Shown: positions 3,128 to 29,343, numbered from the stretch's first letter. The stretch: DNA of 32,000 nt from an uncultured Chloroflexia bacterium (GCA_963718915.1 CAVRAI010000012.1:16305-48304), one strand, 5' to 3'. A program made the numbers and translations. Notes: a model not told the origin generated them from the letters alone.

Positions 3128-3290
3128 ACCTCAGTATATTCGGTGACAACTCCCCACGGCTACAGCCGAGGGCTTCTCAGTTCACCCGGCAGCCCATCGG
3201 CTCCCGTCCCTGAAGGCAGTGCCCCTGCCTGTAGTGCTACTTCTACTCGTAATCCGGCCTGTAAGATATTCTTGGCGGCATTCACATCGC
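3128..3290 (-). ncRNA. predicted omega/right-end RNA of the TnpB element (position inferred)
   Basis: In characterised TnpB systems the guide RNA scaffold overlaps the 3' end of tnpB and the right end. Here the 3' tail and downstream sequence contain stem-loops such as CCCTCGGC-TGTA-GCCGTGGGG. Boundaries were not determined. Confidence 0.3.
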
Positions 3291-7611: not shown

Positions 7612-7761
7612 GGGCGGCCTCCTCAGATGGAATGTATACATATCAGAACGGATGATGGGTATACCAGGCAACGCATCGGCGATGATCGCGACGCGCTTCA
7701 CAAGTATACCCTGCTCCCTATCCTTTCTCCGTATGCCTAACCCATCTGGTAGTCCGCCTCT

Positions 7762-8761: not shown

Positions 8762-11040
8762 CTAGCGCGCGAGGGCGTCACCCTCGCCAAGCGCCAGCCG
8801 AATCAGCGTATCGCGTGGGGCAGCCAGCCCCGCCGTCCAGGCGCGCTGATAGTCTTCATCACTCAGCGCTACACGACATCCGGCGAGCGCATGCTCGAAC
8901 GCCTCCTGTTCGGCAGGCGGACGTGGCGTGTGGCCTCTGGCGCGTAGTGTCTCGGTTCCGGCGCTGATGGTCACCGCGCGGATAGAGTTGCCCTCAGCGG
9001 CGTCGAGCGCCGCGACGGCTTCCAGACACCACGTCAGGTAGACATCGCTGCCGAAGGTGCGATAGAGCGTCAGCGCGTTGCCATAGTGCTGGCGCGCCTG
9101 CGGTCGCGCTGCTGCGCGAACGCGAGCAGTCCCAGATGCGTCTCTGCCAGCGCCTCGCCCCAGAGCGAGCCGATCTGGCGGACAACCCGTAGCGCCTCCT
9201 CATGTAGCGCGACCGCGTGCGGCATATTCCCCTGCGCCTGTGCGCTCTGAGCCCGGAAGCCGAGCGCTGTACTAAGCGCGTGCAGGTTGCCGCTCTTGCG
9301 CGCCTGCGCCAGACCCTCGTCAAAGAGGCTATCCGCCTGTGTGACATCACCTCTGCGCTGGGCAATCTGCCCAAGTATCACAAACGCATTGCTCATACCT
9401 TCGGCATCGTCCGCCTCGCGGGCTGTCCGCAATGACTCATCCGCCAGTGTAGCCGCGTTCTCAGTCTCGCCGCGATCATAGGCCAGCCGCGCGGCGCCAA
9501 AGAGCGTATTGGCGCGCAACGAGGGTGACGCGGGCGTCTCGCTGGCGGCGTCGAGCGCGAGAAATGCCTCCAGCCAGCCGCGCATCTCGGAGAGCAGCCC
9601 ACTGAGATACCAGATGCGGCCAAATCGCGCCAGAAGCTCCATGCCTGCCGCGCCCCTGCCCGCGCCGCGCGCCCAGGTTAACGCCGCCCGCACGTTAGGC
9701 ATTTCGCGCACCAGCGACGCCTCATCGCCCTCGAAGCCCGCAAAATAGGCCGCGTGACGCGCGGCACAGTCTTCTTCTTCGCCGACTGCGCGCAAACGGT
9801 CACGGGCGTCGTCGTGAATCGTCGCCAGCATCTCGTAGCGCGCCGCGCCATCCGCCTGGATGCGCATCCGCAGCAGACTGGCGTCCACCAGCGCGATCAC
9901 ATCGGGCAGCAGATCGCGCGCGGCATCTTCCGCTGGAGAGCAGACCGCCTGAATGGCTGGCAAGGTGGCGCCGCCAGCGAAGACCGCGAGATGGCGAAAG
10001 AGCGCCTGGGCGGATGGCGGCAACAGGTCATAGCTCCATCCGATGGTATGGCGTAGTGTCTGGTGGCGCGCTGGCATATCACGCGCGCCGCTCTGCGGCA
10101 GCGTCGCCCCGACGCTCAGCCGCAGGCGCAGATCCGCGAGCGAGAGCGCGCCGAGCTGAGCGGCGCACAACTCGATGGCCAGCGGCAGGCAGTCCACCTG
10201 TTCGCAGACAGCGGCAACCTCCGCCGGAGCCAGCGGCAGATCGTCGCGGATTGTCGTGGCGCGGGCGGCGAAGAGCGTGGTGGCGTCGGGGAGCGCCAGC
10301 GGTTCGATGGCCAGCGATTGCTCGCCGCGCAGGCGCAGTGGCGTGCGGCTGGTGGCCAGCAGCGTGATATTTGGACATGCGGCCAGCAAGTCAGCTAGAA
10401 GCGGCGCGCACGCCACCACCTGCTCTATATTGTCGAGCAGCAGCAGCATATTCTGGTTGCGCAACGCCTCCGAAATCGTAACGAGCAGCGCGCCTGTCGG
10501 TGACTCGCGCAATCCCAGCGCCTGCGCCAGCGCCGCCGGAACCAGCGTCGCGTCTTGGATGGGCGCGAGGTCAACGAAGACCGCGCCCGCCACAAACTGG
10601 CTCTCTGACTCGCGGGCAAGCTCCAGCGCGAGGCGTGTCTTGCCAACACCTCCCGGCCCGGTGATCGTGAGCAGGCGTGTCTCGGCGTGTCGCATGAGCC
10701 GCAGCCCGCGCAACACATCCTCCGCACGGCCAATCAGTGGTGTGGGCGGCAGCGGCAGGCGCGTACGCCCCGCTGGAATCGCTACGGTGGCTGGTGTCGT
10801 CTCCAGTTCGGGATGCGCGGCGGCAATCAGCGCGGCGCGATCTCCCGAGGAGAGGTCGAGCGCGGCGGCGAGTAGCTCCAGGGTCTCGGCGCGTGGGGTG
10901 CGGTTGATGCCGCGTTCGAGGTCACTCACGGCTCGGACGCTCACATTCGCGCGGGCAGCCAGCGCCTCCTGGGTGAGACCCGCGAGCGTGCGATAGCGCT
11001 TGAGCAGCGCGCCAAACGAATGCGATGAGTCTATCGCCAT
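8762..11040 (-). pseudogene. XRE-HTH / NB-ARC (STAND) ATPase / TPR regulator with one frameshift near the C-terminus
   Basis: Start MAIDSSHSFGALLKRYRTLAGLTQEALAARANVSVRAVSDLERG (HTH). Walker A GPGGVGKTRLAL, Walker B LLLLDNIEQV, then TPR repeats. The frame breaks at about 9095-9110 and continues as ARQHYGNALTLYRTFGSDVYLTWCLEAVAAL...GEGDALAR to 8762. Confidence 0.75.
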
Positions 11041-11221
11041 GACAATCGTAATCCTGATGACCAATCTACCGCATATCTCCGCGCGATGCCAGCATGATAG
11101 CACACCGTACCCGGACGCAAGATGTGGGAAAGCTGTGGGCGCTCGTCATGGTCTGTACCCAGTTGTGTGGGCATACTTGTCCTCAGGTGGAACAGCGAAT
11201 TGTTACCGAAAGGAGCGGGGT

Positions 11222-17758: not shown

Positions 17759-18088
17759 ATGGGCATTGACTCCAGCTCTGCTCCCCAGACTGACCCTTCT
17801 CATAATGGCCCGTCAATCGACCGGGCGCGCATCGTGGCCATCCTGCGCACTTATGGTGTGCTACATGCCAGCCTGTTCGGGTCGGTTGCGCGCGGTGAGC
17901 AGCGGACGGATAGCGATATTGACCTGCTGATTGATCTGCCGCCAGGCGCATCGCTGATGGATGTCTCCCGCCTGGGTCTGGAATTGGAAGATGCCCTGGG
18001 TCGCCCCGTTGACCTCGTGACTTCGTTCGATGCGCTGCATCCTGTTATTCAGGAACGCTTGCGTCGCGAAGAAGAGGTATTGCTGTAG
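17759..18088 (+). CDS. minimal nucleotidyltransferase (MNT/Pol-beta superfamily), orphan
   Basis: LFGSVARGEQRTDSDIDLLIDLP is the GSxxRGE...DxD NTase motif. No HEPN partner follows. Confidence 0.8.
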   Translation: MGIDSSSAPQTDPSHNGPSIDRARIVAILRTYGVLHASLFGSVARGEQRTDSDIDLLIDLPPGASLMDVSRLGLELEDALGRPVDLVTSFDALHPVIQERLRREEEVLL

Positions 18089-18182: not shown

Positions 18183-19474
18183 ATGCCACAACAAGTACGT
18201 GTTTTTGTCAGCCATCACCACAGCCCCACTGAGGATACATTCACAGGGTTGCTCGTAAGGGATTTGGAACGGGCGCAAGCAGATGTCTGGGTTGATAAGA
18301 ACGAGATACAACCTGGCGAGGATTTTCAAAGTAGAATCAACTCTGGATTATTAGGTCGACAGTACCTCGTCCTCGTGATGACCCCAGCGGCGTTAGCGTC
18401 GAAATGGGTGCGACAAGAAGTGGCAGCGGCAAATGCTCTCTGTAACAATGGTCAGATGAGAGGAATTATTCCCGTTATCGCAGAACCATGCAGCGAAAAC
18501 GACATACCACCGCTATGGGGCACATATCTTCGTCTGGATGCTACTAAAGACTATACTGCCGCAAGGGATACGCTCCTTCGTACCCTTGGATTACAGCTCC
18601 CTGTTGAACATGAACAGCCTGTGTTCTCATTTCGTTCCCAGGGAGGTATGAAACCGAACGAAGAGATTTGCGGCTGCAGAGTGGTTGAGCCTATCGGTAA
18701 TGGCGACATGGCTATCGTCTATAAGGCAGAACAGATACATGTGGGTAATCGTACGGTAGCCATCAAGATTGTCTATTGCAGCGACCCCAAATCCGTTCGC
18801 GGTTTCCAGCGTGAAGCGAGTATCCTTGCCTCTTTATCACATCCCAATATCGTCCATGTCTTCGATATGGCGTGCAGGGCGACTTCGTATACCTCGTCGT
18901 GGAGTTCATGACGGGCGGTGATCTGCGCAAATACCTCAAGCGCCAGGGCTTCCTGACCCCAGAGCGCGCCGTCGCGATTGCCCACGATGTCGCTCTCGGC
19001 CTTGGTTGTATCCATGATCACGGTATCGTTCACTGTAATGTCAAGCCCGAAGACATTCTCTTGAACGACTACGATGGACTGGCCAAGCTGTCCGACTTTG
19101 GCACCTGTGTATCAACTGACCATGACGAGATTGAGTATAGCGCCATTACCAGTATGTCGCTTGAAACTGTCCGATACTATGCCCCCGAACAAGCGCAGGG
19201 CAAGAGAGTGACGCCCGCCAGCGATATCTACATGTTGGGCATCGTGATGTATGAGATGCTCACGGGCACGGTGCCCTTCGACGGCAATACGCCGGTCGCA
19301 GTGGCGATGCGCCATATTCAGGATATCCCTGAGCCGCCTTCGCATTTGAACCCAGCGATTCCACACGAGTTGGAGTGGATCATCCTGCGCTGTCTCGAAA
19401 AAGATCCACGCAACCGCTATCTCAACGGTAACGAGCTTGTCAAGGCGCTCGATCAATATCAACAGGGGAGATAG
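18183..19474 (+). pseudogene. TIR domain - Ser/Thr protein kinase-like fusion, interrupted by a 1-nt frameshift at about 18866
   Basis: N-terminal TIR: VFVSHHHSPTEDTF...SKWVRQEV. Kinase: IGNGDMAIVYKA, VAIK, FQREASIL, HPNIVHVFD, then the frame shift, then YGVQGDFVYLVVEFMTGG, IVHCNVKPEDILL, SDFG, YYAPE. GGGAGG RBS. Track ORFs 18183-18911 and 18872-19474. Confidence 0.8.
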
Positions 19475-19622: not shown

Positions 19623-20291
19623 CTACTCCTCGCGGTTGATCGTCAGGTCGCGCAGGGTGATCGAGTAGTTCTCGCGCACCTCCGCCAGCAGGAAGCGCAG
19701 CGCCACCTCCGCGCCGAGCGCCACCACCAGCAGCACCAGATTGCGCGCCAGCGGATAGGCGCAGACATCCGGCGCGACGATATCGCCGGGGACACGGTAG
19801 CCCTCGTTCCAGTGGATCTCGCCGTAGTCGGTATGCATGCCAAGGTGCAGGCAGGGGCGTTCGAGGGTGGCGCAGGTGTCGGTGACGAGGCGGCGCGAGG
19901 CCGAGGTATCGAATGTATCGAGCGCAAGGTCGGCATTGCGCAGCAGCTTCGCGGCGTTACGCTCGGTCAGCGGCTGGCTTGCCACCACGAGTTCAACGCC
20001 GGTCGCGCGGTAGCAGCGGGCGCGTAGCGCATCCACCTTGAACGCGCCGATATCGCCCTCCTCGTAGCTCTGCGTGCCAAGGTTGTGCTGCTCGACGCGG
20101 TCGAAGTCGATCACTGTCAACTGGCGGACGCCCTGGCGTAGCAGGTGTTCGGCGAGATGCGAGCCAAGCGCGCCCGCACCACACAGGACAATGCGCGCCT
20201 CCGCCAGTCGCGCCAGCGCCTCGTCGCCGCGATAGAGCGCCTCGTGAATCAGCGGGCCATGCTGGTCGGGTCTATCGGGTCTATCAGGCAT
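19623..20291 (-). CDS. ThiF/MoeB/E1-like adenylyltransferase-fold protein (short form)
   Basis: RIVLCGAGALGSHLAEHLLRQGVRQLTVIDFDRVEQHNLGTQ is the Rossmann nucleotide-binding motif of the ThiF family. The start overlaps the upstream gene by 8 nt. Confidence 0.8.
   Translation of the reverse strand: MPDRPDRPDQHGPLIHEALYRGDEALARLAEARIVLCGAGALGSHLAEHLLRQGVRQLTVIDFDRVEQHNLGTQSYEEGDIGAFKVDALRARCYRATGVELVVASQPLTERNAAKLLRNADLALDTFDTSASRRLVTDTCATLERPCLHLGMHTDYGEIHWNEGYRVPGDIVAPDVCAYPLARNLVLLVVALGAEVALRFLLAEVRENYSITLRDLTINREE
19633..19649. repeat. 17-bp direct repeat, right copy (inside the 3' end of the E1-like gene)
   Basis: CGGTTGATCGTCAGGTC is identical to 17653-17669, 1980 bp away. Confidence 0.95.
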
Positions 20292-21066
20292 AGCGAGGCT
20301 CCCTCCGCCGGGCGAAGACCCACTGCGACGCGCCCTGAACGATGACCGTCACGATGATGGCCGCGACGAACGCGGGCAGGATTCCCGCCGGGACAATCAG
20401 TGTGCCCGCGACCAGAAAGAACGACGCGAACGAGAGCAGCCCCACCAGCAGCCCGCGCAGCAGCCGGAGCGCCGCCGCTGTTCCCGCCTGCGCTTGGGTG
20501 AAGGTGGCGAGCACCGTGCCAAAGATCGGAAACGGCGCCAGCAGCCCGGTGAGGTGCGGGCCAAGCTGAGGCGCGGCGCCAGTCAGCAGCAGCACGAAGA
20601 CCGTGGCGACCACCATCCGCGCGGGAATATCCCATATAGGCGGCGTCATAGCGACAGTATCTTTGACCGGGATACGCGGGAAGAGCGCCAGCGCCAGCGC
20701 CGCCACCACGACGCAGAGCGCGAATGCCAGCGCCAATGGGAGGATGGCCAGTTGCAGCAGCGCAGTCGCCGCGAGAAAGACGAGCCAGCTTGCGAGCAGC
20801 GCGCCGGGCCAGCGCCAGCGGAGAGCCGCCCAGGCATACGTCAGGCAGAAGATGGCCACTGAGATGGTGCCGAAGATGATGCCACGCGCGGTATCCGCCG
20901 CGAAGATTGTGCCGTTTTGCAGCGCGAGGATCAGCAGCACTGGGCCGGAGGTCAGTGGCAGCCCGACGAGCAGCCCGCTCACCGCCGGACCCCACCGCCG
21001 ACCCGCCACGCTCACCAGACCAATCAGCGAGGGCGTCAGCAACGCCTTGAGGAAGAAAAGACTCAT
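20284..21066 (-). CDS. polytopic membrane protein with two DUF3147-like halves
   Basis: MSLFFLKALLTPSLIGLVSVAGRRWGPAVSGLLVGLPLTSGP is repeated as ARMVVATVFVLLLTGAAPQLGPHLTGLLAPFPIFG. An alternative start lies at 21081. Confidence 0.65.
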   Translation of the reverse strand: MSLFFLKALLTPSLIGLVSVAGRRWGPAVSGLLVGLPLTSGPVLLILALQNGTIFAADTARGIIFGTISVAIFCLTYAWAALRWRWPGALLASWLVFLAATALLQLAILPLALAFALCVVVAALALALFPRIPVKDTVAMTPPIWDIPARMVVATVFVLLLTGAAPQLGPHLTGLLAPFPIFGTVLATFTQAQAGTAAALRLLRGLLVGLLSFASFFLVAGTLIVPAGILPAFVAAIIVTVIVQGASQWVFARRREPRYA

Positions 21067-21104
21067 GTTTCCAGTGTACATGTATCGCGCTAGCCCCGTC
21101 GCAT

Positions 21105-21479
21105 CTATGCCGCGGAACCCGCCGATTGACCGTGGGCGAAGAAAGCCAGGAACGCGACGACTCCAACCATCACAAGCAGGGTGAGGATACCAAGGAGAAA
21201 AGCGATCCAGGCGATGCGGCTCCCGCCGCTGCTATCCCTGAGCACCAGGCCAGCCAGGAAAGTAGCGAAGATTGGCAGCGGCCACTCGAAACAAAAGAAG
21301 ACCGTATAGATTGACCCGACGACGATATCGCTACCCGCGCCGGGGATGCGCGCCAGCGTCATGATCGCGTTGACGGCCACAGTCAGCGGCACGATGAGCG
21401 CGAGCGCTAATGCGATCCACGCGGCGACGCGCTGTCGTCTGGGCGACGCGACCGGCGCGGGATACATCTCCGATGTCAT
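21105..21479 (-). CDS. small membrane protein, unknown function
   Basis: MTSEMYPAPVASPRRQRVAAWIALALALIV... with 4 TM helices. The track ORF extends to 21572, which would overlap the upstream gene by 8 nt. Confidence 0.55.
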   Translation of the reverse strand: MTSEMYPAPVASPRRQRVAAWIALALALIVPLTVAVNAIMTLARIPGAGSDIVVGSIYTVFFCFEWPLPIFATFLAGLVLRDSSGGSRIAWIAFLLGILTLLVMVGVVAFLAFFAHGQSAGSAA

Positions 21480-21564
21480 GGCGCCCCACCCTTTCGTAGC
21501 GGATGAACCCTTGATCGCCGAACCATACAGACTATATGACACACACGCCCTGCCTGCCAGTCTA

Positions 21565-22425
21565 TTACTCATCGCCTTCTATCTCGTCGCCGTAGCGGGG
21601 GATGGGCTGGCCTGTCGCCTCGCGCATCACGCTGACCATGCTCGTCAGGTCGAAGCGGGCGTCCTGGCCGGAGAGGCAGATGCCCGCCGTCAGCACCGAG
21701 AGATCGCTCTTGCGCACCGTGCTGACACTGCGCTCGTCCCCGACCATGTAGGCGACGGTGTAGCTGTCGTCGCGCTCGGTGAAGGCGATCAGACGACCGC
21801 CAGCGTGCGCCAGCGCAGTGGCCAGACGTCCGACGATGCCCGCGCGCTCAGCCTCGGACACCAGCGTCCGCGCCCAGGCATAGGCCGCGCGCTCCTCGGC
21901 GGATAGTCCCGACTTGCGCAGATCTTCGGTCGGCGTTCCGGCATCGAGCGCCGCGCGCAGGTAGGTTGCCAGCGCCGGATTGCGCCGGTTGTCGCGTCGC
22001 TCGTACCAGAAGAAGTGGCCATCGAAGCGGGCAAACACCGTCTCGAAGGGCTGGATGCCTGCCTCAGCCAGCAGCACTGGCGCGGGACCGCTGAGCTTGA
22101 GGCCCTTCTCGCCCTGGCTGGCGGGCAGCGCGTACCACTGATGTCCTTCGCGCGCGACAACGATCAGCCGCAGCGCCGGGAAGAGCTTGAGGTAGGCGGC
22201 AATCTCCGCCAGTGTCGCCGGACGGATGAGTTGCGCCGTCTTCAATGTCTCTGGCCGCAGCACACCCCAGCCGGTGAAGCGCTTGCCCGTCACCCGCAGC
22301 GTGCAGACGATGCCCGCGATGCGCACGATGACCCCCCGCCCCGGTAGCACGGGCGCCAGCACCTCGCGCTGGAGGAAGTCGTTTTCGGCGGCCTCCAGCC
22401 GGTTGAGAATGTCATCGATGCCCAT
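21565..22425 (-). CDS. hypothetical protein, 286 aa, no recognisable domain
   Basis: AGGAGG is 9 nt upstream of ATG 22425. Coding-like composition. Sits between the vWA gene and the membrane genes in the same operon-like string. Confidence 0.7.
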   Translation of the reverse strand: MGIDDILNRLEAAENDFLQREVLAPVLPGRGVIVRIAGIVCTLRVTGKRFTGWGVLRPETLKTAQLIRPATLAEIAAYLKLFPALRLIVVAREGHQWYALPASQGEKGLKLSGPAPVLLAEAGIQPFETVFARFDGHFFWYERRDNRRNPALATYLRAALDAGTPTEDLRKSGLSAEERAAYAWARTLVSEAERAGIVGRLATALAHAGGRLIAFTERDDSYTVAYMVGDERSVSTVRKSDLSVLTAGICLSGQDARFDLTSMVSVMREATGQPIPRYGDEIEGDE

Positions 22426-22431
22426 AGCGGT

Positions 22432-23268
22432 TTACCTCCTGACCTCACCCCCATCCCCCTCTCCTGTGGGAGAGGGGGAGCCAGAGTGGAGCAGCCCACG
22501 CGCGCCCAGGCGGCTGATCGCAGCGGAGACGGCGGGACGATTGCTCGCCAGCCGCGTCGCCAACTCGTCGAGGCTGTCGTTGGGATGATCCCTCCGTGCT
22601 GCCAGTACCGTGCGGTCGAACGCCAGGTTGCCGAACTCCTCCACCAGAATCGCCTGAAGCGAGGCGATGGCGTCCTGGCCCTCGGATCGGTCGCGCCAGA
22701 TGGCGAAGAACTCACCGCCAGTCAGGTTGCTGAGCGCGCTGAACGACGACTCGACGCCACTGGTCAGCCCCAGGGCGTAGAACGTCACGCGCGCCTCCTC
22801 GGCTGCCGCCGTCACGCTCTCGATGGTCTCGCCACAGGGACACCCGTGTGGGAAGCCATCGCCACGTCCCCCGACGCCATGCGGTGGCGAGTCACCCACC
22901 AGCACCGCCAGCCGACGCGCGTGTGGCCGCCATGCCAGCTCGCGCACCGCCGCCAGCATACCATCCAGCACCGATTCCGGCCCATCGCCGCCGCCGTTGG
23001 CCGTCAGCCCGTTCAGCGTTGCGCGGGCGGCGTCGAGATTGGCGGTGAGGTCGTAGGCGCGGAAGGGCAGCGGATCCTGCGGCGGGTGGTCGCGGTACTC
23101 GACGATACCCAGCCGCAGGCTGACCTCATCCGCCAACAACAGCGCGTCGATCATGGCGATCATGCGCTGCTGCGCGCTGGCGATGAGGCCGGTCATGCTG
23201 CCGGTGGTGTCCACCACGAAGGCGAGATCGAGCGCAGACACCTCGTCAACGCTCATATCTCCGGTCAT
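22432..23268 (-). CDS. von Willebrand factor A (vWA) domain protein with C-terminal wHTH-like segment
   Basis: MIDAS motif VVDTTGSM, GGGDGPES, VLVGDSPPHG. C-terminal DELATRLASNRPAVSAAISRLGARGLL. The ATG overlaps the upstream stop (ATGA). Confidence 0.85.
   Translation of the reverse strand: MTGDMSVDEVSALDLAFVVDTTGSMTGLIASAQQRMIAMIDALLLADEVSLRLGIVEYRDHPPQDPLPFRAYDLTANLDAARATLNGLTANGGGDGPESVLDGMLAAVRELAWRPHARRLAVLVGDSPPHGVGGRGDGFPHGCPCGETIESVTAAAEEARVTFYALGLTSGVESSFSALSNLTGGEFFAIWRDRSEGQDAIASLQAILVEEFGNLAFDRTVLAARRDHPNDSLDELATRLASNRPAVSAAISRLGARGLLHSGSPSPTGEGDGGEVRR
22441..22486. repeat. REP-like palindromic element, copy 2 (inverted relative to copy 1)
   Basis: Contains the perfect hairpin CCCCCTCTCC-TGTG-GGAGAGGGGG. 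Its reverse complement aligns with 12193-12236. It supplies the last ~18 codons (SPSPTGEGDGGEVRR) of the vWA ORF. Confidence 0.7.
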
Positions 23269-24854
23269 GACGCCTTCCTTTCCGGCAGCGGGTACTCCAG
23301 AATCTCCATCAGCAGATCGACCATCGACGGCCGCTGGAGCAGCGGGATCAGGTTCGGTAGCGCGTAGTAGTCGCCGCTGAACGTGAAGACACTCGGCGCG
23401 ATGCCCAGGCCGGTGCAGGCGCGCTCCAGGATGTTGGAGGAATGCCCCACCTTCACCAGAATCACGTCGGGCCGGGTCTGCGTCTCCTCGCTGTAGGCCT
23501 TGTAGGCGTTGGCGAAGAGCGGCGCCTGGTTCTCACCCTCATCGGTGACGAGGATGAACTGCTCGACGCGCTGACCCTTGCGCCGCATCATCTCGATGGC
23601 CACGCCACACGACGTGCCGCCGCCCGCGGTGATGCCCGTCAGCGCCTTCTCCCACTCCGACAGAGACGCGCCACTGGCCTCGATGGGGTAGGCGATGGTG
23701 TCGAAGGCATAGGCGAAGAACTCCGCCTCGATGATGGACGAGATCATCGCGCCCAACTGACGACCTACCTCGATGGCGACATGCATGGATCCGCTCTTGT
23801 CCAGCAACATCGCCGTCGAGCGCGTGATGCGCCCCTTGGCCTTCACCTGCGCCTCGGTGATGGCATCCAGCTGCTCGGCCAGCTCGCCGGAGACGTTGGC
23901 CGCCTCGACCGCGACCTTCGCCTTGTAGGCGGAGACGCGCTTGTCGCTCTTGGCCGCCTCCAGCTTCGCCTCGATTAGCGCCTTGACGTCCTCGTTGTCG
24001 AACGCGCCACGCGCCTTGAGCGAGCCGATGTTGTTGATGACCTCCTGTGGGGTCATCACCTCAACCAGCGCCGCCAGCACCGTCGGCGACATCTGCTTGA
24101 CGAGCGAGGTCGCCACCCGGTACGGGATGTGATGCTCGACCAGTGCGCGCGCCTGCTCGGCGGGCGTCTCGGCCTGGCGGATAGCCCGCATCGCGGCGAA
24201 GACGCTGCCCTCCGGCGGCTCCTCGCCAAAAAGCACCGCCTGCGCCCGCCCGGTGGGGCGGATGTGCAGCCCAGCGTAGAGTCGCTTGATGGCCGCACGC
24301 GCATGCAGCACCGCCTGATCGAACTTCTCGACATGCGCCTCGCGCTCGCGCAGGTAGCGCTCGATCTCGGTGCGCATCGAACGTGGGACGTTGACGAAGA
24401 GGCCGACCTGCTCGATCTTCGTCTCCATCGGCACGGCAGGCTTGCGGGATGCCTTACGACCGCGCCGACCAGTGGTCCCGGCCGCCGGAGTGGCAGCCGG
24501 CTCAGGCGCGCTTGCCACTGTGGCTGTTGCATCCGCCACGGGCACACGCCGCTTCACCTGGTGGCCCTTAATGAAGTCCACCACGCGGGCAAGCTGGTAC
24601 GGTGGCAGGCGACGCATCAGCGCCAGGCCAACGTCGCGATGCCCCTCCGCCTGCGAGAGGCAGAGGCAGATCACAAACATCTCCTGGTGGTCGCGCACCT
24701 CGCCGTGGTCGGCATACCACGCGGCCAGCCGCACGTAGAAGCGCGGATCCCGCGTCAGGATTTCCTGGTGCTGAGGATACAATGCGGTCAGGTTGCGGTG
24801 TGGCGTCGTCAACAGCGTGTTGAGCAGGTCCAGCCGCAGGTCACGCTCGGTCAT
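23265..24854 (-). CDS. Ro60/Rsr-like protein (TROVE-like helical N-domain plus C-terminal vWA)
   Basis: 529 aa. DPRFYVRLAAWYADHGEVRDHQEMFVICLCLS...RRLPPYQLARVVDFIKG resembles the TROVE pattern of Ro60. C-terminal vWA motifs LLDKSGSM, TAGGGTSCG, FILVTDEGEN and PDVILVKVG parallel Ro60 DVSASM, AGGTDC, FTDNET and AKLIVCGM. GGAAGGGAGGG RBS. Confidence 0.6.
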   Translation of the reverse strand: MTERDLRLDLLNTLLTTPHRNLTALYPQHQEILTRDPRFYVRLAAWYADHGEVRDHQEMFVICLCLSQAEGHRDVGLALMRRLPPYQLARVVDFIKGHQVKRRVPVADATATVASAPEPAATPAAGTTGRRGRKASRKPAVPMETKIEQVGLFVNVPRSMRTEIERYLREREAHVEKFDQAVLHARAAIKRLYAGLHIRPTGRAQAVLFGEEPPEGSVFAAMRAIRQAETPAEQARALVEHHIPYRVATSLVKQMSPTVLAALVEVMTPQEVINNIGSLKARGAFDNEDVKALIEAKLEAAKSDKRVSAYKAKVAVEAANVSGELAEQLDAITEAQVKAKGRITRSTAMLLDKSGSMHVAIEVGRQLGAMISSIIEAEFFAYAFDTIAYPIEASGASLSEWEKALTGITAGGGTSCGVAIEMMRRKGQRVEQFILVTDEGENQAPLFANAYKAYSEETQTRPDVILVKVGHSSNILERACTGLGIAPSVFTFSGDYYALPNLIPLLQRPSMVDLLMEILEYPLPERKAS

Positions 24855-24915
24855 TGGATATCCCTCCCTTCCTGGGAAATTGCAGGCTTACAAGCCTCAC
24901 TCTCTTGGCCATAAA

Positions 24916-24925
24916 TGAACGTTCA
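24916..24925. promoter_or_regulatory. 10-bp palindrome in the leader of the Ro-like gene
   Basis: TGAACGTTCA lies about 65 nt upstream of ATG 24854. A second palindrome AGGCTTACAAGCCT lies at about 24883-24896. Confidence 0.3.
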
Positions 24926-24965
24926 CTTTTATTCCGAACACCATGCGTCGTGGTGGGGGAGGCAA

Positions 24966-24987
24966 GCCGTAGCGTAAACGCTACGGC
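24966..24987. other. perfect 9-bp stem / 4-nt loop hairpin between the small gene and the Ro-like gene
   Basis: GCCGTAGCG-TAAA-CGCTACGGC, extendable by GGGGAGG/CCT(A)CCCC. No U-tract on either strand. Confidence 0.6.
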
Positions 24988-25137
24988 GAATTTCCTACCC
25001 CTCACGCTCTGGCCTATTCGCCGGGGCATTCATGCTCCGGCAGGCTCACCCTACGACACCGTTCGGGGTAAATTCGTAACGTTCTTCAACCGCCAGCCGT
25101 CGCGGCGTGTCGCATCAAGGCCGGGATTGCTACCCCA

Positions 25138-25377
25138 TCACCCGAAGACAGCCTCCGGGCGGACGGTGATGTTGCCGTTCTCGTGGCGCTCGACCACGTA
25201 CGGCGCGAATCGGCCAACCGCTACGTCGAAGTAGTTCGCCAGGGCGCCCAGCACCTCGGCCTCGCTGGCATCCGGCGCGAGATGGAGCGCGCTCAGCGGC
25301 ATCTGGCGGCTCACACCCTCGAAGCGGACGTGCAGCATCGGCTCGGTCGGCTCGATACGCTGGATTGGCTCTGCCAT
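25138..25377 (-). CDS. small (79 aa) protein ending in Gly; possible beta-grasp/ubiquitin-like fold (speculative)
   Basis: GGAGGAGG is 6 nt before ATG 25377. MAEPIQRIEPTEPMLHVRFEGVSRQMPLSALHLAPDASEAEVLGALANYFDVAVGRFAPYVVERHENGNITVRPEAVFG*. The predicted strand-strand-helix-strand-strand pattern was judged by eye. Confidence 0.65.
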   Translation of the reverse strand: MAEPIQRIEPTEPMLHVRFEGVSRQMPLSALHLAPDASEAEVLGALANYFDVAVGRFAPYVVERHENGNITVRPEAVFG

Positions 25378-25670
25378 ACGATTCCTCCTCCTTCCGCGAA
25401 GTCGCGCGGAAAAACAAAATGGACGTGAGAGCGGCTGCCCCCACGTCCGACACCGCGCACACGCGCTCATCCTCCCGTGGGATGTGGCAGACCGACAGCC
25501 AGGCTATTGAGCGGGCACGAATAGCTATGCGCGTCCGCTATTGCTGGTTGTCGCCAGATGATGGATTTGGCCATCGTCATCTGTTCCACAGTCGGTTTCC
25601 TTGTCATCCATTGGGTACTGGCGCGTCTCGCCACGGCGCCGGAGGAATCGCTATCGCCCTCCGGCTGCAT

Positions 25671-25940: not shown

Positions 25941-26600
25941 TTAAGCCGTTTCACTGAAGACCGGCATCAATATCTCATCTACCAGCAACTCCAACTGGCG
26001 CGCGTCAATCGGGGTCCGGTGCAGCAGATATTGCATACGAATCAGGTCGAACGGCAGGCGTAGCGCGAACTCGCTCACATCCTTGAGCTTCTCGCTGCGC
26101 ACCCTGGCAAAGTCCAATACTTTCCGTATCGCGAGGATGTTTTTCTTGACCGCGTTCTGGCCGATTGCCACCATCGTCGGGCTATTCTGGCTCATCTCGA
26201 AGAGCATCGCATTCATGATTTCCGGGCCAACTTCAATGTAGAAGCGTTGATACAGCGTCAGCATGCACAGCAAATCGCCGCGCAGGCTCCCTGTATCCTC
26301 GATCATGTCAATGAAATCGCCGCCCAGCGCGTGCAGCAACTTCTCCACCACGATGTCGTGGATCAGCTCGAGCGGCGTCTCCCAGCGGCGATAGAGCACG
26401 GTGCGGCTCGTCTGCGCTGCCTGTGCGATCCTCTGGAACGTCAGGTTCGTGTACCCTTCGGTCTTGATGATGTCCTCGACTGCCTGATAGATGCTCTCGG
26501 TCAGCGTGTCGCCACGCCTGCGCGTGTCTCTGCGTTCAGCCTTCTCGATTTTGCTAGCTCTCGCAGATTTATCGACCTTGATAGCCGTCTTGCTCACCAT
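25941..26600 (-). CDS. TetR/AcrR-family transcriptional regulator
   Basis: GGAGG is 8 nt before ATG 26600. IYQAVEDIIKTEGYTNLTFQRIAQAAQTSRTVLYRRWETPLELI is a TetR HTH. GC is visibly lower than the surroundings. Confidence 0.9.
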   Translation of the reverse strand: MVSKTAIKVDKSARASKIEKAERRDTRRRGDTLTESIYQAVEDIIKTEGYTNLTFQRIAQAAQTSRTVLYRRWETPLELIHDIVVEKLLHALGGDFIDMIEDTGSLRGDLLCMLTLYQRFYIEVGPEIMNAMLFEMSQNSPTMVAIGQNAVKKNILAIRKVLDFARVRSEKLKDVSEFALRLPFDLIRMQYLLHRTPIDARQLELLVDEILMPVFSETA

Positions 26601-26665
26601 AGGATGTGCCTCCTCACCATACTCTGCCCTCATTTTGCCACATCTCTGCCACTTTTGGGTACATC

Positions 26666-26728
26666 TTGCACTTTATTTCGTGGTGAAGTACAATGTGTAC
26701 CGTAATAGGGTACAATATGTACCGTAAT
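26666..26728 (+). promoter_or_regulatory. MFS promoter with two tandem palindromic TetR-type operators
   Basis: TTGCAC (26666-26671), 17 nt, TACAAT (26689-26694). Direct repeat of GTACAATGTGTACCGTAAT (26688-26706) and GTACAATATGTACCGTAAT (26710-26728), each containing a GTACA-N3-TGTAC palindrome. Confidence 0.65.
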
Positions 26729-26742
26729 GAGGCGAGGCAAGC

Positions 26743-28260
26743 ATGGTAAACACAACAAACACGCAAGAGCAAACAAACATGCAGGAGCAACAAGAAAAGG
26801 CCATCCCTGGCCACATCATCGTGTTGGCGTTGATTATGGTGCTGGGGGCGGTCCCGCCGATGCTGGACACCACCATCGTCAACATCGCCGTCAACGACCT
26901 CTCCCAGCAGTTTAACGTTCCGTTCGTCACGACGCAGTGGGTGGTGACGGGCTATGTCCTGGCGCTGGCCATCGCCGTGCCGTTTTCCGGCTGGCTCATC
27001 CAAAAGTTCGACGGCAAGCGCATCTTTATGAGCACGCTGGGTCTGTTCCTGGTCGGCAGCCTGTTCTCCGGCCTGTCATGGAACATCGAGAGTCTGATCG
27101 CGTTTCGCGTGGTCCAGGGCTTCGCGTCCGGCCTGCTGATTCCGACGCTGACGACGCTGCTGGTGCAGCTCGCGGGCAGCAATAAGCTCGGGCGGCTGAT
27201 GTCTATCGTGAGCGTCCCTATCGTCTTGGGGCCAATCGTGGGGCCGGTCATCGGCGGGCTGATCTTGCAACGGCTGACGTGGCACTGGCTGTTCTTCGTC
27301 AATCTGCCCATCGGCGCGGTGGCCCTTATACTGATGCAGTGGAAGCTGCCTAAATTCGCGCCCACGAATACTGCCGCGAAGCTCGACGTGCTCGGCATCG
27401 CGCTGCTGGCGCTGATCTCTGGCATGTTCATCTTCGGCGTGACCGAGATCAGGGGAACCGACACGCAGACGCTCGGCCTCGGCGCACTCATCGCGGGCGC
27501 CGTGGCGACGCTGTTGTACCTGCTCTACGCCTGGCGCCAGGCGGGCCACGCGCTGATCCCGCTGGGCCTGTTCCGCTCGCGGAACTTCAGCGCGGCGTTC
27601 GCCTCGCTCTTCCTGGCGGGCTTTGCCACCAACGGGCCGATGCTGCTACTCCCAGTCTTTTTCCAGAATGTGCGCGGGCTGGACGCCATCACGGCGGCGC
27701 TCTGGCTGATTCCGCAGGGCGTGGGCATGCTGCTGACGCGCTCGCCCATCGGCAGGATGACCGATAGGTTCGGCGCGCGGCTGGTGGTGCTCCCGGCCAT
27801 TGCGATTATCATCGTCGGCACGCTGCCCTTTGCCTTCTTCGACGCGACGACGCCGACCTGGCTCATCTGGCTCGCCCTGCTTGTGCGCGGCATAGGTATT
27901 GGCGGCTTCACCATCCCGGTGATGACCGATGCCTATGTGGGCATGCCGAAGCCACAAATTCCGCAGGTCAGTATCGCTACGCGCATCATCAATAATGTGG
28001 GCGCGGCCTTTGGCTCCGCGCTGCTGGCCACGGTTGTCACGAATGCCTTCGCCGGGCCGAGCGCCGGGCTGGCGGGCCTCACCAGCGCCTACCACGCTGG
28101 CTTTCTCTTCAGCCTCGCCTTCACGGCCATCGGTATCCTCCCCGCCGCCTTCCTCACCAACAGACTCGCAACGTCGAAGGCAGCGTCGAAGGCGGATGCG
28201 AAGCCGGATGCCATGGAAGCGATGCTGGAGGAGGAGAACGCAGCCTACAGCGTCGAGTAA
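26743..28260 (+). CDS. MFS transporter, DHA2 (EmrB/QacA-like) family
   Basis: 505 aa. MLDTTIVNIAVNDL, GWLIQKFDGKR and FRVVQGFASGLLIP motifs. Divergent from the TetR gene. Confidence 0.9.
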   Translation: MVNTTNTQEQTNMQEQQEKAIPGHIIVLALIMVLGAVPPMLDTTIVNIAVNDLSQQFNVPFVTTQWVVTGYVLALAIAVPFSGWLIQKFDGKRIFMSTLGLFLVGSLFSGLSWNIESLIAFRVVQGFASGLLIPTLTTLLVQLAGSNKLGRLMSIVSVPIVLGPIVGPVIGGLILQRLTWHWLFFVNLPIGAVALILMQWKLPKFAPTNTAAKLDVLGIALLALISGMFIFGVTEIRGTDTQTLGLGALIAGAVATLLYLLYAWRQAGHALIPLGLFRSRNFSAAFASLFLAGFATNGPMLLLPVFFQNVRGLDAITAALWLIPQGVGMLLTRSPIGRMTDRFGARLVVLPAIAIIIVGTLPFAFFDATTPTWLIWLALLVRGIGIGGFTIPVMTDAYVGMPKPQIPQVSIATRIINNVGAAFGSALLATVVTNAFAGPSAGLAGLTSAYHAGFLFSLAFTAIGILPAAFLTNRLATSKAASKADAKPDAMEAMLEEENAAYSVE

Positions 28261-28332: not shown

Positions 28333-28361
28333 TTGCGGATAGACCCATCATGTGCTAGACT
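28333..28361 (+). promoter_or_regulatory. promoter P1 of the first RNA triplet (A-X1-B)
   Basis: TTGCGG (28333-28338), 17 nt, extended -10 TGC-TAGACT (28356-28361). Same layout as P2, 492 bp downstream. Confidence 0.55.
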
Positions 28362-28373
28362 GCCTGACTGATA

Positions 28374-28500
28374 GAGTTGTCTGCGCCCTCACCTGGGATG
28401 CATACATGCGCGGGTTCGATTCCCGCTACGCCCACCACGCGGGCGTATAGTTCAATGGTAGAACACAACACTCAGCCTCGCGAACTCGCGCGGATGACTC
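28374..28500 (+). ncRNA. tRNA-mimic (YrlA/Y-RNA-like) module A
   Basis: 13-bp basal helix 28374-28386/28488-28500 (3 G-U pairs). T-arm GCGGG-TTCGATT-CCCGC (28410-28426). Acceptor TACGCCC / loop ACCACGC / GGGCGTA. Then TA and D-arm GTTC-AATGGTA-GAAC. Confidence 0.6.
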
Positions 28501-28508
28501 TTTGCCAA

Positions 28509-28621
28509 CATGTCCCGTATCCTCACAGCGGTTGCATACAAACGGGCTGAACACCCACTGGTTTTTGCAACCAGTTTCCCGCAAGGGATTCTCTTCGCGA
28601 CCGAAACTTGTGCGGGACATG
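28509..28621 (+). ncRNA. variant module X1 (same family, non-tRNA hairpins of tRNA-like dimensions)
   Basis: 9-bp closing helix CATGTCCCG/CGGGACATG. Hairpins GGG-CTGAACA-CCC, ACTGGTT-TTTGC-AACCAGT (7 bp) and TCCC-GCAA-GGGA. Shares the 5' CCTCAC..GCATACA and 3' CTTCGCGA..AACT motifs. Confidence 0.5.
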
Positions 28622-28652
28622 GCATAATAGCATGTGGCATCAATCGTGATTT

Positions 28653-28801
28653 GGCCGGGCGCGTCCTCACCAGCGTAGCCTACATTCAATCCTCAAACTG
28701 GAATCGCGGGTTCGACTCCCGCCGCCCCTTCGGGAGCGTAGTCTAGTGGCCCAGGACGCCAGTACCTGAATACACTGCTTCGCGAACTCGCGCGCTCGGC
28801 C
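28653..28801 (+). ncRNA. tRNA-mimic (YrlA/Y-RNA-like) module B
   Basis: 11-bp basal helix GGCCGGGCGCG/CGCGCTCGGCC. Anticodon-stem-like ACTGG/CCAGT. T-arm GCGGG-TTCGACT-CCCGC. Acceptor capped by TTCG. D-arm GTCT-AGTGGCCCA-GGAC. Confidence 0.6.
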
Positions 28802-28824
28802 CATCGCGTGTCATGAAATTGCCC

Positions 28825-28853
28825 TTGCGCAAGCGTGCGCCATGTGCTAGACT
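28825..28853 (+). promoter_or_regulatory. promoter P2 of the second RNA triplet (C-X2-D)
   Basis: TTGCGC (28825-28830), 17 nt, TGC-TAGACT (28848-28853). The downstream CATGTGCTAGACTGCCTGACTG is identical to P1. Confidence 0.55.
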
Positions 28854-28865
28854 GCCTGACTGGTG

Positions 28866-29002
28866 GAGTCGTCCGCGCCCCCACGAGGGAAGCATACAAC
28901 CTACAGTTGCGGGTGCAAATCCCGTCGCCTCGACCGCTTCGAGGCGTAGCTCAATAGCAGAGCATCGGCAGTAACTGCTTCGCAAACTTGCGCGGACGAC
29001 TC
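28866..29002 (+). ncRNA. tRNA-mimic (YrlA/Y-RNA-like) module C
   Basis: Perfect 13-bp basal helix GAGTCGTCCGCGC/GCGCGGACGACTC. T-arm GCGGG-TGCAAAT-CCCGT. Acceptor CGCCTCG / loop ACCGCTT / CGAGGCG. D-arm GCTC-AATAGCA-GAGC. Confidence 0.6.
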
Positions 29003-29041
29003 ATCCCAACCGATATCATTCGCACAGATGATCCATGGCGG

Positions 29042-29160
29042 CATGCCCCGTATCCTCACAACGGTTGCGTACAAACTGGGCTTGAAACCCCCAAACTGGC
29101 TGTAAACCAGTTCCCTGATAAGGGATCTCACATCTGCGACCGAAACTTGTGCGGGGCATG
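29042..29160 (+). ncRNA. variant module X2
   Basis: Closing helix CATGCCCCG/CGGGGCATG carries a compensatory T-A to C-G change relative to X1. Hairpins GGG-CTTGAAA-CCC, AACTGG-CTGTAAA-CCAGTT and CCCT-GATA-AGGG. Confidence 0.5.
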
Positions 29161-29180
29161 GCTTTCGCGAACAACGTCGG

Positions 29181-29302
29181 CGCTGGGCGCGCCCTCAACT
29201 GGGAAGCGTACATACACTGCGGGTTCGACTCCCGTCGTCTCCACCTTTTGGGGATGCTCACTGGTCACGTATTTTCCGCTTCTCGAACTTGCGCGTCCGG
29301 CG
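29181..29302 (+). ncRNA. tRNA-mimic module D (D-arm degenerate)
   Basis: 11-bp basal helix CGCTGGGCGCG/CGCGTCCGGCG (2 G-U pairs). T-arm GCGGG-TTCGACT-CCCGT. Acceptor CGTCTCC / loop ACCTTTT / GGGGATG. Confidence 0.5.
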
Positions 29303-29343
29303 CGTCCGCGTTTCCTCCTCCCGTATCCTCGCCCCGCGGTGAA

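Follow-up and report, generated by a model that had tools for sequence, protein, structure and literature searches.

The genes at positions 19623-25377 in a 32,000-nucleotide stretch of DNA from an uncultured Chloroflexia bacterium (GCA_963718915.1 CAVRAI010000012.1:16305-48304; the whole stretch is here called the window) raise the question of what a protein resembling the RNA-binding protein Ro60 is doing beside genes of the kind that activate ubiquitin-like (Ubl) proteins. A sequence-only reading had described a Ro60-like protein of 529 amino acids with a C-terminal von Willebrand factor A (vWA) domain, encoded within a cluster of seven co-directional genes and near an array of tRNA-mimicking RNAs. 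We conclude with high confidence that the locus contains a divergent Ro60 protein with its own Y-like RNAs, located in a conserved mobile cassette together with a Ubl candidate, an E1 enzyme, a protein with OB-type barrels and an invariant cysteine and, in many cases, a JAB protease. With more modest confidence, we favor the interpretation that a Ro60-Y RNA ribonucleoprotein (RNP) is here coupled to a minimal system for Ubl activation and conjugation, which is horizontally mobile and elsewhere travels with supernumerary tRNA arrays.

The protein of 529 amino acids (23265-24854, minus strand) had no match above threshold in Pfam, NCBIfam, PADLOC or the PDB (phmmer), and the Pfam TROVE model did not recognize it even at an E-value of 0.1. 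The only match in PHROGs was weak, to an "RNA-binding protein" family. The relationship was instead recovered from the predicted structure. An AlphaFold2 model (predicted local distance difference test score, pLDDT, 82.4; predicted template modeling score 0.72; 46 homologs in the alignment) consists of a TROVE-like helical ring followed by the vWA domain, with a basic insert at residues 106-142 that is predicted to be disordered. When the model was compared with the PDB using Foldseek, the 13 best matches were all Ro60, Rsr or TROVE structures, aligned over 530 to 600 columns with E-values of 3e-11 to 1e-8, template modeling scores of 0.57 to 0.62 and sequence identities of 12% to 15%. The matches ranked next were isolated vWA domains, with E-values poorer by a factor of at least about 500. 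A family profile searched against the PDB sequences placed Rsr from D. radiodurans (2nvo) at the top, with a weak E-value of 0.031, and the alignment was collinear through the elements DVSGSM, GGTDC and TDNE of the MIDAS (the metal ion-dependent adhesion site). Profile and structure searches had been named in advance as a possible refutation, and their outcome favors the relation to Ro60 and Rsr; none of the other refuting outcomes listed beforehand was observed either.

The MIDAS is intact in the C-terminal vWA domain (D352-x-S354-x-S356, T414 and D438), and these residues are invariant or nearly so in 46 to 89 homologs. The same holds for the segments that had been singled out beforehand, namely RRLPPYQLARVVDFIKG, DKSGSM, GGGTSC and TDEGEN, all of which are present in the protein. 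With matches to Ro60 and Rsr exclusively, over the full length, the modeled fold identifies the protein as a Ro60 by fold rather than by the Pfam TROVE model. More than 2581 homologs were obtained in one search, and the family comprises 968 clusters at 50% identity; none of its members contains a Pfam domain, and those that have been named are nearly all called "hypothetical". Since Pfam TROVE misses the family, TROVE-based surveys (PMC4201824) would have left it out, and more than 2500 sequences are hereby brought into the Ro60 fold.

Two observations concern the architecture of this family. A strongly conserved C-terminal extension follows the vWA domain (residues 490-529, positions 23265-23384), with the pattern F.GDYYALPN..P.L..PS...L..EI...PLP.R, and may serve as a docking site for a partner. 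In a metagenome-assembled genome (MAG) of the Ktedonobacterales (L030:811-2214), a Hint domain or intein has been inserted exactly within the DxSxS element of the MIDAS (...LLDK/CVVGSTLICTEYG...), and the corresponding database entry, P0081, is named "Hint domain-containing protein".

To describe the genomic context we used 95 non-redundant loci from 3 sets: the best 80 genome loci obtained with the Ro-like protein as the seed (their sources were Chloroflexota, Planctomycetota and Abditibacteriota/Armatimonadota, with a small number of other groups), one phage record plus two plasmid records, and 14 viral contigs from IMG/VR seeded on the protein of 286 amino acids that is encoded downstream of the Ro-like gene in the window. 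The conserved order in these loci was a small protein ending in FG, a Y-like RNA, the Ro-like protein, the OB-fold protein with a GICL motif, Prok-JAB (in about half of the loci) and ThiF/E1. Among the 62 loci with at least 5 kb of downstream sequence, homologs of the 286-residue protein were found in 51, ThiF in 49 and JAB in 28, and the small Ubl-like protein was present in 54 of the 70 loci with at least 2.5 kb upstream. Both flanks were available for 51 loci, and the full core of small protein, Ro-like protein, 286-residue protein and ThiF recurred in order in 37 of them, from different phyla. In the viral contigs seeded on the 286-residue protein, the Ro-like gene was located upstream in 13 of 14 and ThiF was likewise present in 13 of 14. 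The cassette proteins were 52% to 67% identical across phyla.

The conserved core is thus composed of the Ubl-like protein, the Ro-like protein, the 286-residue protein and the E1, plus the Y-like RNA. The seven genes that had been taken together in the sequence-only reading do not hold as a functional unit, as the two membrane proteins are confined to three close relatives and a second vWA protein with a winged helix-turn-helix (wHTH) tail was found in only 8 of the 62 loci. It was correctly noted, however, that the partner set is not the Rtc one: neither RtcB nor RtcA was detected in Pfam scans of the other large open reading frames (ORFs) of the window.

Individual loci showed rearrangements of the cassette. 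The complete genome of Abditibacteriota bacterium IAD-21 contains two full cassettes (L045 and L061), each located after genes for tRNA-Tyr and tRNA-Ser, and the vWA-wHTH gene is present in one of the copies and missing in the other. In another locus (L001:11613-19742), the cassette is split, with a transposase fragment and a carotenoid-biosynthesis cluster located between the gene for the 286-residue protein and ThiF.

The RNA component of the cassette is represented in the window by six RNAs of about 115 to 145 nucleotides on the plus strand (28375-29303), each closed by an end-to-end stem of 12 to 13 bp. Four are of a type, here called A, with a permuted tRNA-like apex, and two are of type B, with a different apex. 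In a permissive Rfam scan, the YrlA model matched A1 (28375-28499) with 34.8 bits and an E-value of 5.6e-5, A2 (28655-28799) with 27.2 bits and A3 (28866-29002; fold z-score -5.7) with 28.7 bits over the full model, all of which are below the gathering score of 69 for RF02553. At gathering thresholds Rfam gave no match in the window, and ARAGORN identified 0 true tRNA genes there. In A1, an outer stem, a CCUCAC/GAACUCG internal loop and an inner stem support an apex in which the T-arm is followed by an acceptor-like hairpin with an ACCA loop and then by the D-arm. The permuted tRNA-like module is full in A1, A2 and A3 and partial in A4 (29180-29303; fold z-score -3.8), which has the T-arm and the acceptor-like hairpin and no D-arm, and in which this part gave weak matches to tmRNA-type Rfam models. 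It is absent from B1 (28509-28621; fold z-score -4.5) and B2 (29042-29161). B1 has a non-tRNA-like apex and is 85% identical to B2, which was recognized by its fold, its similarity to B1 and the shared module motif.

Common to all six RNAs is a module of an outer stem, an internal loop and an inner stem ending in ...RGC-NUACA, with CCUCAC as the 5' strand of the loop and (C)GAACUYG as its 3' strand; across loci, the corresponding sequences are CCYCAC and RAACUYG. The search for this module in other loci used a motif devised in this analysis. Copies of the 5' loop motif were present in 39 of 87 related loci, 50 of them on the strand of the Ro-like gene versus 10 on the other. Most were located either 150 to 1600 nucleotides upstream of this gene or shortly after ThiF. 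For the analysis of covariation, instances were chosen that had an outer stem of at least 6 bp. In these, 83.7% of the cells were paired, as compared with 59.7% after shuffling, and the covariation score was 0.62 versus 0.21, a value that was reached in 0 of 500 shuffles; controls in which the alignment was slid were 30% to 47% paired. Double changes were observed in 13 of the 15 pairs of the module, and both helices covary. Because the selection on the outer stem biases helix 1, the inner helix, which was 89.9% paired, provides the unbiased test.

The apex is the variable part and often mimics tRNA. It forms a near-complete tRNA-like body in canonical order in two loci (L019 and L026), is permuted and YrlA-like in L052 and in the window, and consists of plain hairpins in three others (L008, L043 and L085). 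By analogy, a stem for protein binding combined with a variable effector arm would correspond to the modular logic of Y RNAs. Taken together, the sub-threshold similarity to YrlA and the presence of the same RNA module beside the Ro-like gene in distant phyla bear out the proposal that the RNAs at 28.4-29.3 kb belong to the system. A further candidate, in the 283-nucleotide spacer between the Ubl and Ro-like genes, has a stable fold, but was rejected because conservation among close relatives was limited to the ribosome-binding region.

The RNAs in the window are arranged as two A-B-A triplets, and in front of each is a box of the type TTGCGG/C-17 nt-TGnTAGACT with an extended -10 element (28333-28361 and 28825-28853, plus strand). 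These boxes are likely promoters, as judged from their sequence, although a generic promoter scan did not list them, and their presence before both triplets implies a tandem duplication of a transcription unit of three RNAs.

The gene at the upstream end of the cluster (25138-25377, minus strand) codes for a protein of 79 amino acids that ends in ...RPEAVFG-stop and represents the Ubl candidate. The ORF extends over 25138-25470, and the ATG at 25377 was chosen as the start because it is supported by the homologs. The sequence (V/I/T)FG or FYG was located directly before the stop codon in 51 of 53 orthologs, and residues H16, R18, G21, S23, R73, P74, A76 and G79 were invariant. The conservation pattern looks compatible with a β-β-α-β-β fold, and the protein is a predicted substrate of the E1. 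In one Chloroflexia MAG (L010:9716-10120), there is no stop codon after ...VFG, and the Ubl is in frame with the Ro-like protein via a basic linker of 23 codons. This is either a natural Ubl-Ro fusion, in a locus that also contains a JAB gene, or an error in the long-read assembly.

The E1-like enzyme at the opposite end of the cluster (19623-20291, minus strand) is a minimal adenylyltransferase of 222 amino acids, and its proposed assignment was borne out by a Pfam ThiF match with an E-value of 2.1e-28. Comparisons with the NCBIfam models for ThiF, MoeB and SAMP-E1 were below the equivalog cut-offs (at best 92.8 bits versus 159), and PADLOC gave only generic E1 domain matches, to the E1 part of E1-E2 models. 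The nucleotide-binding and Mg motifs are kept, and the conserved features include GxGAxG, DxDRVExxNxxTQ, K85, DxFD, C147 and C177. Clustering of all ORFs also identified a Prok-JAB protein of about 140 amino acids, encoded between the gene for the 286-residue protein and ThiF in other lineages. It matched PF14464 with 44 bits against a cut-off of 25, contains a JAMM motif and had a desampylase as its best NCBIfam match. A JAB remnant of 55 amino acids was identified just upstream of ThiF in locus L001, and it appears from the gene order that JAB was lost from the window and its slot taken by two lineage-specific membrane proteins.

The 286-residue protein (21565-22425, minus strand) had no match above threshold in Pfam, NCBIfam, PADLOC or searches of PDB sequences. 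In the AlphaFold2 model (pLDDT 79.8), N-terminal OB/S1-like barrels lead into a long helix and then a four-strand sheet, a loop with a cysteine and a final helix, and the region around the cysteine is modeled at low confidence. The Foldseek matches were all weak and included the barrels of RNase II, S1, exosome-cap proteins and eIF5A. The best-conserved feature is Cys250, which is invariant within the motif aGICLxGxDxxFDLxSLV, even in viral homologs of 23% to 42% identity. The protein is a candidate RNA-binding adaptor or E2-like carrier.

The remaining three genes of the cluster are not part of the core. The gene at 22432-23268 (minus strand; 278 amino acids) codes for the second vWA protein, which has a MarR-like wHTH tail. 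The vWA assignment was sustained by Pfam (VWA_4 2.4e-10 and VWA 1.6e-8), and MarR_2 matched at 4.6e-4, which is below the cut-off. In 14 of 83 loci, distributed over several phyla, its gene adjoins that of the Ro-like protein; some of these loci have no Ubl or E1 genes, and the protein is an occasional accessory. The two membrane proteins, of 155 amino acids (21105-21572, minus strand) and of 265 amino acids, the latter polytopic (20284-21081, minus strand), were found only in three close Ktedonobacterales relatives (L005, L006 and L039), and they were for this reason rejected as core parts. No family match above threshold was obtained for the shorter protein in Pfam or NCBIfam, or for the longer one in Pfam, NCBIfam, PADLOC or PHROGs. 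Both genes occupy the position of Prok-JAB in other lineages.

The strongest contextual signal, missed in the sequence-only reading, is that the cassette is linked to long arrays of tRNA genes, to a megaplasmid and to huge phages. Within 6 kb upstream of the Ro-like gene, co-directional tRNA genes reached a density of 4.68 per 10 kb, as compared with 0.06 to 0.26 in control regions on the opposite strand or downstream, an enrichment of about 18-fold. At least one tRNA gene was present within 6 kb upstream in 26 of 70 loci, and at least 10 were present in 9 of the 70. Arrays of 13 to 33 tRNA genes were located directly upstream in five loci (L002, L049, L060, L071 and L085), the largest of which, with 33 genes, is on a 1.2-Mb megaplasmid of the cyanobacterium Kovacikia minuta (L085). 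A 595-kb phage record and IMG/VR contigs of 111 to 572 kb also contained the whole cassette, likewise beside tRNA genes. Long tRNA arrays have been described as horizontally transferred, with neighborhoods enriched in RNA-processing genes, and translational stress induces an array of this kind in Anabaena (PMC8421152). The location of a protein and RNA cassette at the end of many long tRNA arrays, in chromosomes, a megaplasmid and huge phages, suggests that these arrays bring their own RNA-surveillance device. It was also noted that a huge-phage locus encodes a tRNA with a four-base anticodon, gaaa (L084:6492-6567), and that a tRNA-SeC gene is located between the Ubl and Ro-like genes in a viral contig (L089:6898-6969).

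As for the layout of the window itself, the ORF coordinates agree with seven co-directional minus-strand genes with tight junctions at 19623-25377. These include a 4-nucleotide ATGA overlap between the Ro-like and vWA-wHTH genes (23265-23268), a gap of 6 nucleotides between the vWA-wHTH gene and the gene for the 286-residue protein (22426-22431), and an overlap of 8 nucleotides between the gene for the 265-residue protein and ThiF (20284-20291), all as previously described. An additional overlap of 8 nucleotides, between the genes for the 286- and 155-residue proteins (21565-21572), had not been recorded. Judging from the ATGA overlap, the vWA-wHTH gene is probably translationally coupled to the Ro-like gene. 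The best matches, with 93% to 95% identity, were to MAGs of the Ktedonobacterales, which assigns the window to this order of the Chloroflexota. A TetR gene (minus strand; Pfam TetR_N and TetR_C) and an MFS transporter gene (plus strand) are located between the cassette and the divergent RNA array (25941-28260), where the GC content drops to 0.555. In two close relatives (L004 and L006), the Ubl gene and the RNA array are immediate divergent neighbors with about 430 to 500 nucleotides between them, which leaves no room for the TetR/MFS pair, and this pair is therefore an insertion in the window that falls outside the system.

Other genes in the window include TnpB/IS605 OrfB (3160-4395, minus strand), DnaN, the beta clamp (6454-7701, minus strand), an HTH-NB-ARC/STAND-TPR NTPase (9070-11103, minus strand) and an MNT-type nucleotidyltransferase (17759-18088, plus strand). 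Convergent with ThiF, a TIR domain and a Ser/Thr protein kinase are encoded across two overlapping frames (18183-18911 and 18872-19474; 18183-19474 in total, plus strand), which represent a frameshifted gene or a sequencing error. The TIR-kinase, STAND, MNT and TnpB genes were considered as parts of the system and rejected, since clustering of the ORFs indicated that they are not kept with the cassette across loci; the DnaN gene is likewise not conserved alongside it.

How could these components work together? We propose that the Y-like RNAs are held by the Ro-like ring through their conserved stem module and that the OB-fold protein recognizes either their tRNA-like arm or tRNAs. After adenylating the terminal glycine of the Ubl, the E1 would hand the Ubl to a cysteine, which could be its own C177, Cys250 of the OB-fold protein (in the role of an E2-like carrier) or both. 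The final acceptor of the Ubl would be the RNP or the proteins on those RNAs that the Ro-like protein has captured, and JAB would reverse the attachment where it is present. The role of such a system could be the surveillance or turnover of damaged or surplus tRNA-like RNAs under translational stress or a tRNA-targeting attack. In the lineage of the window, two co-translated membrane proteins have replaced JAB, a vWA-wHTH accessory gene is present, and the RNA array is divergent from the cassette, split off by the TetR/MFS pair. A more specific version, which we regard as doubtful, is that the Y-like RNA is the scaffold of a Ubl ligase, with its stem in the Ro ring and its tRNA-like arm recruiting the Ubl carrier with the OB fold and Cys250. 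The Ubl would in that case be placed on whatever the ring holds, which might be the RNP itself, a protein trapped on a damaged tRNA or, conceivably, the 3' end of the RNA. The earlier description of an RNA-centered module with undescribed partners therefore stands with regard to the link to RNA and the non-Rtc partners, and falls with regard to the composition of seven genes.

Several points weigh against the coupling of the RNP to Ubl conjugation. The genome loci were the best 80 matches per scan, and 6 of the 51 loci with both flanks, mostly from Gemmataceae and often still with a Y-like RNA, contain a Ro-like gene without Ubl or E1 genes nearby, so the coupling is not obligatory. The protein of 79 amino acids has no similarity to known beta-grasp families that was detectable in Pfam, PDB sequences or profile searches. 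No JAB was found in the window or in its close relatives in a hidden Markov model search. For the E2-like idea, which draws on a motif of five residues, the predicted topology and the position in the operon, with the cysteine in a region of low confidence, the comparisons gave no support: none of 43 members of the 286-residue family matched Pfam or Prok-E2, hhalign of the family against three human E2s aligned 5 residues only, and a profile of the C-terminal domain searched against PDB sequences had no E2 among its matches. The E2 role is consequently treated as hypothetical. As for the RNAs, the search motif was our own and the outer-stem selection favors one helix in the covariation test; the array in the window is on the opposite strand, 3.5 to 4.4 kb from the Ro-like gene, and the window itself has no tRNA array.

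The main rival is that the Ubl and the E1 work as a sulfur-carrier pair, like ThiS/MoaD, TtuB-TtuC or SAMP-UbaA, and produce a thiocarboxylate that serves to thiolate tRNAs or the tRNA-like Y RNAs, with the OB-fold/Cys protein as an RNA-binding sulfur acceptor or transferase and conjugation as a secondary activity. SAMP and TtuB systems combine tRNA thiolation with conjugation, and several of our results could be explained in this way: the E1 is a minimal ThiF-type enzyme with ThiF models as its best NCBIfam matches, Pfam recognized no E2, the JAB protein resembles a desampylase, the cassette is strongly tied to tRNA genes and tRNA mimics, and the partner protein combines RNA-binding-type barrels with an invariant cysteine. 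However, the Ubl ends in Phe/Tyr-Gly, whereas known sulfur carriers end in Gly-Gly, the ThiF scores are far under the equivalog cut-offs, and the 286-residue protein has no PP-loop or Fe-S-type motif. Furthermore, clustering of the ORFs revealed no conserved family beyond the cassette, in an analysis that did not specifically search for rhodanese, cysteine desulfurase or PP-loop ATPase. We consider a sulfur carrier unlikely, though worth keeping in mind.

Less probable again is a conflict system like Bil or CBASS-Cap2, in which the Ro-Y RNP would sense foreign or cleaved RNA and the Ubl would be put on proteins of the invader; in phages, it would then serve counter-defense or superinfection exclusion rather than housekeeping RNA quality control. 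The gene order Ubl ... (E2 slot) - JAB - E1 parallels that of Bil operons, and the cassette has a patchy horizontal spread over phyla, a megaplasmid and huge phages. The ThiF protein matches the E1 part of the E1-E2 models in PADLOC, but the match is limited to the generic E1 domain. Likewise, genes for the TIR-kinase, the STAND NTPase, MNT and TnpB are located near the cassette in the window, but these defense-like neighbors are not conserved with it. Identities of 52% to 67% across phyla are atypical of fast-evolving defense genes, and no domain of an effector type was detected. An anti-defense role is ascribed to phage tRNA arrays (PMC12803027), which would fit the phage version of this scenario.

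Finally, the idea that the 529-residue protein is a vWA domain joined to an unrelated helical N-domain, in a chance juxtaposition of independent genes, takes support from the lack of Pfam TROVE, NCBIfam, PADLOC and PDB sequence matches, the identity of only 12% to 15% to Ro60 structures, and the poor conservation of the membrane proteins and, in most loci, of the vWA-wHTH protein, but it is highly improbable, being already contradicted by the full-length structural matches to Ro60 and Rsr with vWA-only matches at least about 500-fold worse, the collinearity of the weak Rsr profile match, the core order kept in dozens of loci from different phyla and phages, and the conserved, covarying Y-like RNA alongside.

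A Ro60-Y RNA RNP coupled to minimal Ubl conjugation is thus the interpretation that we carry forward. The cassette provides the first genomic tie found here between a Ro-Y RNP and genes for Ubl activation and deconjugation, in prokaryotes as well as phages. It also adds a new class of Y-like RNA, in which a conserved protein-side module is combined with tRNA mimics that are either permuted or canonical, and which offers a handle on the purpose of the tRNA-like arm. If the RNA does act as the scaffold of a Ubl ligase, this would provide a function for the tRNA-like domain of bacterial Y RNAs and for protein genes that travel with tRNA arrays. A small number of recombinant proteins and RNAs transcribed in vitro would suffice to test these claims.

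Known bacterial examples of such RNPs include the rsr-yrlBA-rtcBA operon in Salmonella and the RYPER complex of Rsr, Y RNA and PNPase in Deinococcus. In both the bacterial Rsr/YrlA-YrlB systems and the cassette described here, a ring is combined with a vWA domain that contains a MIDAS, and the small RNAs nearby have a long end stem, an internal loop and a tRNA-like module (PMC4201824). As with known Y RNA genes, for which Chen 2014 used a distance of within 4 kb, the RNAs are close to the protein gene: 3.5 to 4.4 kb away in the window, beyond the TetR/MFS insertion, and 150 to 1600 nucleotides upstream or just after ThiF in the relatives. The cassette differs in that the protein is not recognized by Pfam TROVE, that the RNAs score 27 to 35 bits as compared with a gathering score of 69 for YrlA, that they have a stem and loop motif of their own, and that the tRNA-like part is canonical rather than permuted in some relatives. 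The partners are also different, with Ubl, E1, JAB and the OB-fold/Cys protein in place of RtcB, RtcA and RtcR.

A second point of comparison is phiRo60 of the Thermus phage phiLo, which according to PMC12135203 is accompanied by Yrl1 and Yrl2, two Y-like RNAs encoded upstream of it and recognized in part by a CGAA motif. The text consulted does not mention an operon or genomic context, and no search for Ubl, E1 or JAB terms was made in that source. phiRo60 is a structural neighbor of our model (9l5y and 9kop; E-values of about 1e-8 to 1e-10) at about 15% identity; it is likewise phage-borne with Y-like RNAs upstream, and many RNA copies in our loci carry CGAAC in the 3' loop strand. The family described here differs in that it is found chiefly in huge phages and bacterial chromosomes.

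With regard to the Ubl machinery, Bil systems are operons of the Ubl-E1-E2-JAB type, and the archaeal SAMP/UbaA/HvJAMM1 and Thermus TtuB/TtuC systems are dual-function Ubl systems without an E2. In the prokaryotic Ubl-E1-E2-JAB operons (PMC1779556), as in the cassette, a small protein whose last residue is Gly is accompanied by Prok-JAB and an E1 of the ThiF type, the gene order being Ubl ... X - JAB - E1, and the protein with the invariant cysteine here sits in the position of the E2. They differ in that the cassette has no recognizable UBC/E2, that its Ubl sequence is unrelated to known families, and that a Ro60-like gene and an RNA gene are located inside the operon; an association with vWA or Ro is not mentioned in that paper (Iyer, Burroughs and Aravind 2006). 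The SAMP and TtuB systems resemble the cassette in having a minimal E1, a JAMM protease and a functional tie to tRNA. However, their carriers end in Gly-Gly and work together with sulfur donors and PP-loop thiolases, which were not encountered in the cassette, and they have no Ro60 or Y RNA.

In relation to the tRNA L-arrays (PMC8421152), the cassette in the relatives is located directly downstream of, and co-directional with, arrays of 10 to 33 tRNA genes, and the window differs in having 0 tRNA genes. ThiF, Ro60, TROVE and ubiquitin are not mentioned in the L-array paper, where hypothetical genes were left unnamed. A search of the literature on TROVE/Ro60 in combination with ThiF, E1, JAB, ubiquitin-like proteins or tRNA arrays found no description of the cassette, which may have been described in papers outside the literature searched; co-mentions in an Asgard-virus preprint and an eLife paper were unrelated.

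Two eukaryotic systems offer analogies. The MIDAS of Rea1/Midasin binds the UBL domains of Ytm1 and Rsa4, and in the cassette a vWA/MIDAS protein is encoded beside a Ubl with an invariant acidic residue in its tail (RPE-A-V-F-G). Ro60 is paired with Ro52(TRIM21) in eukaryotes, and here, purely by analogy, a Ro60-type protein is encoded beside ubiquitin-type machinery. If the Y-like RNA serves as a scaffold for Ubl ligation, the cassette would represent a prokaryotic and phage counterpart of the long-debated pairing of Ro60 with Ro52(TRIM21).

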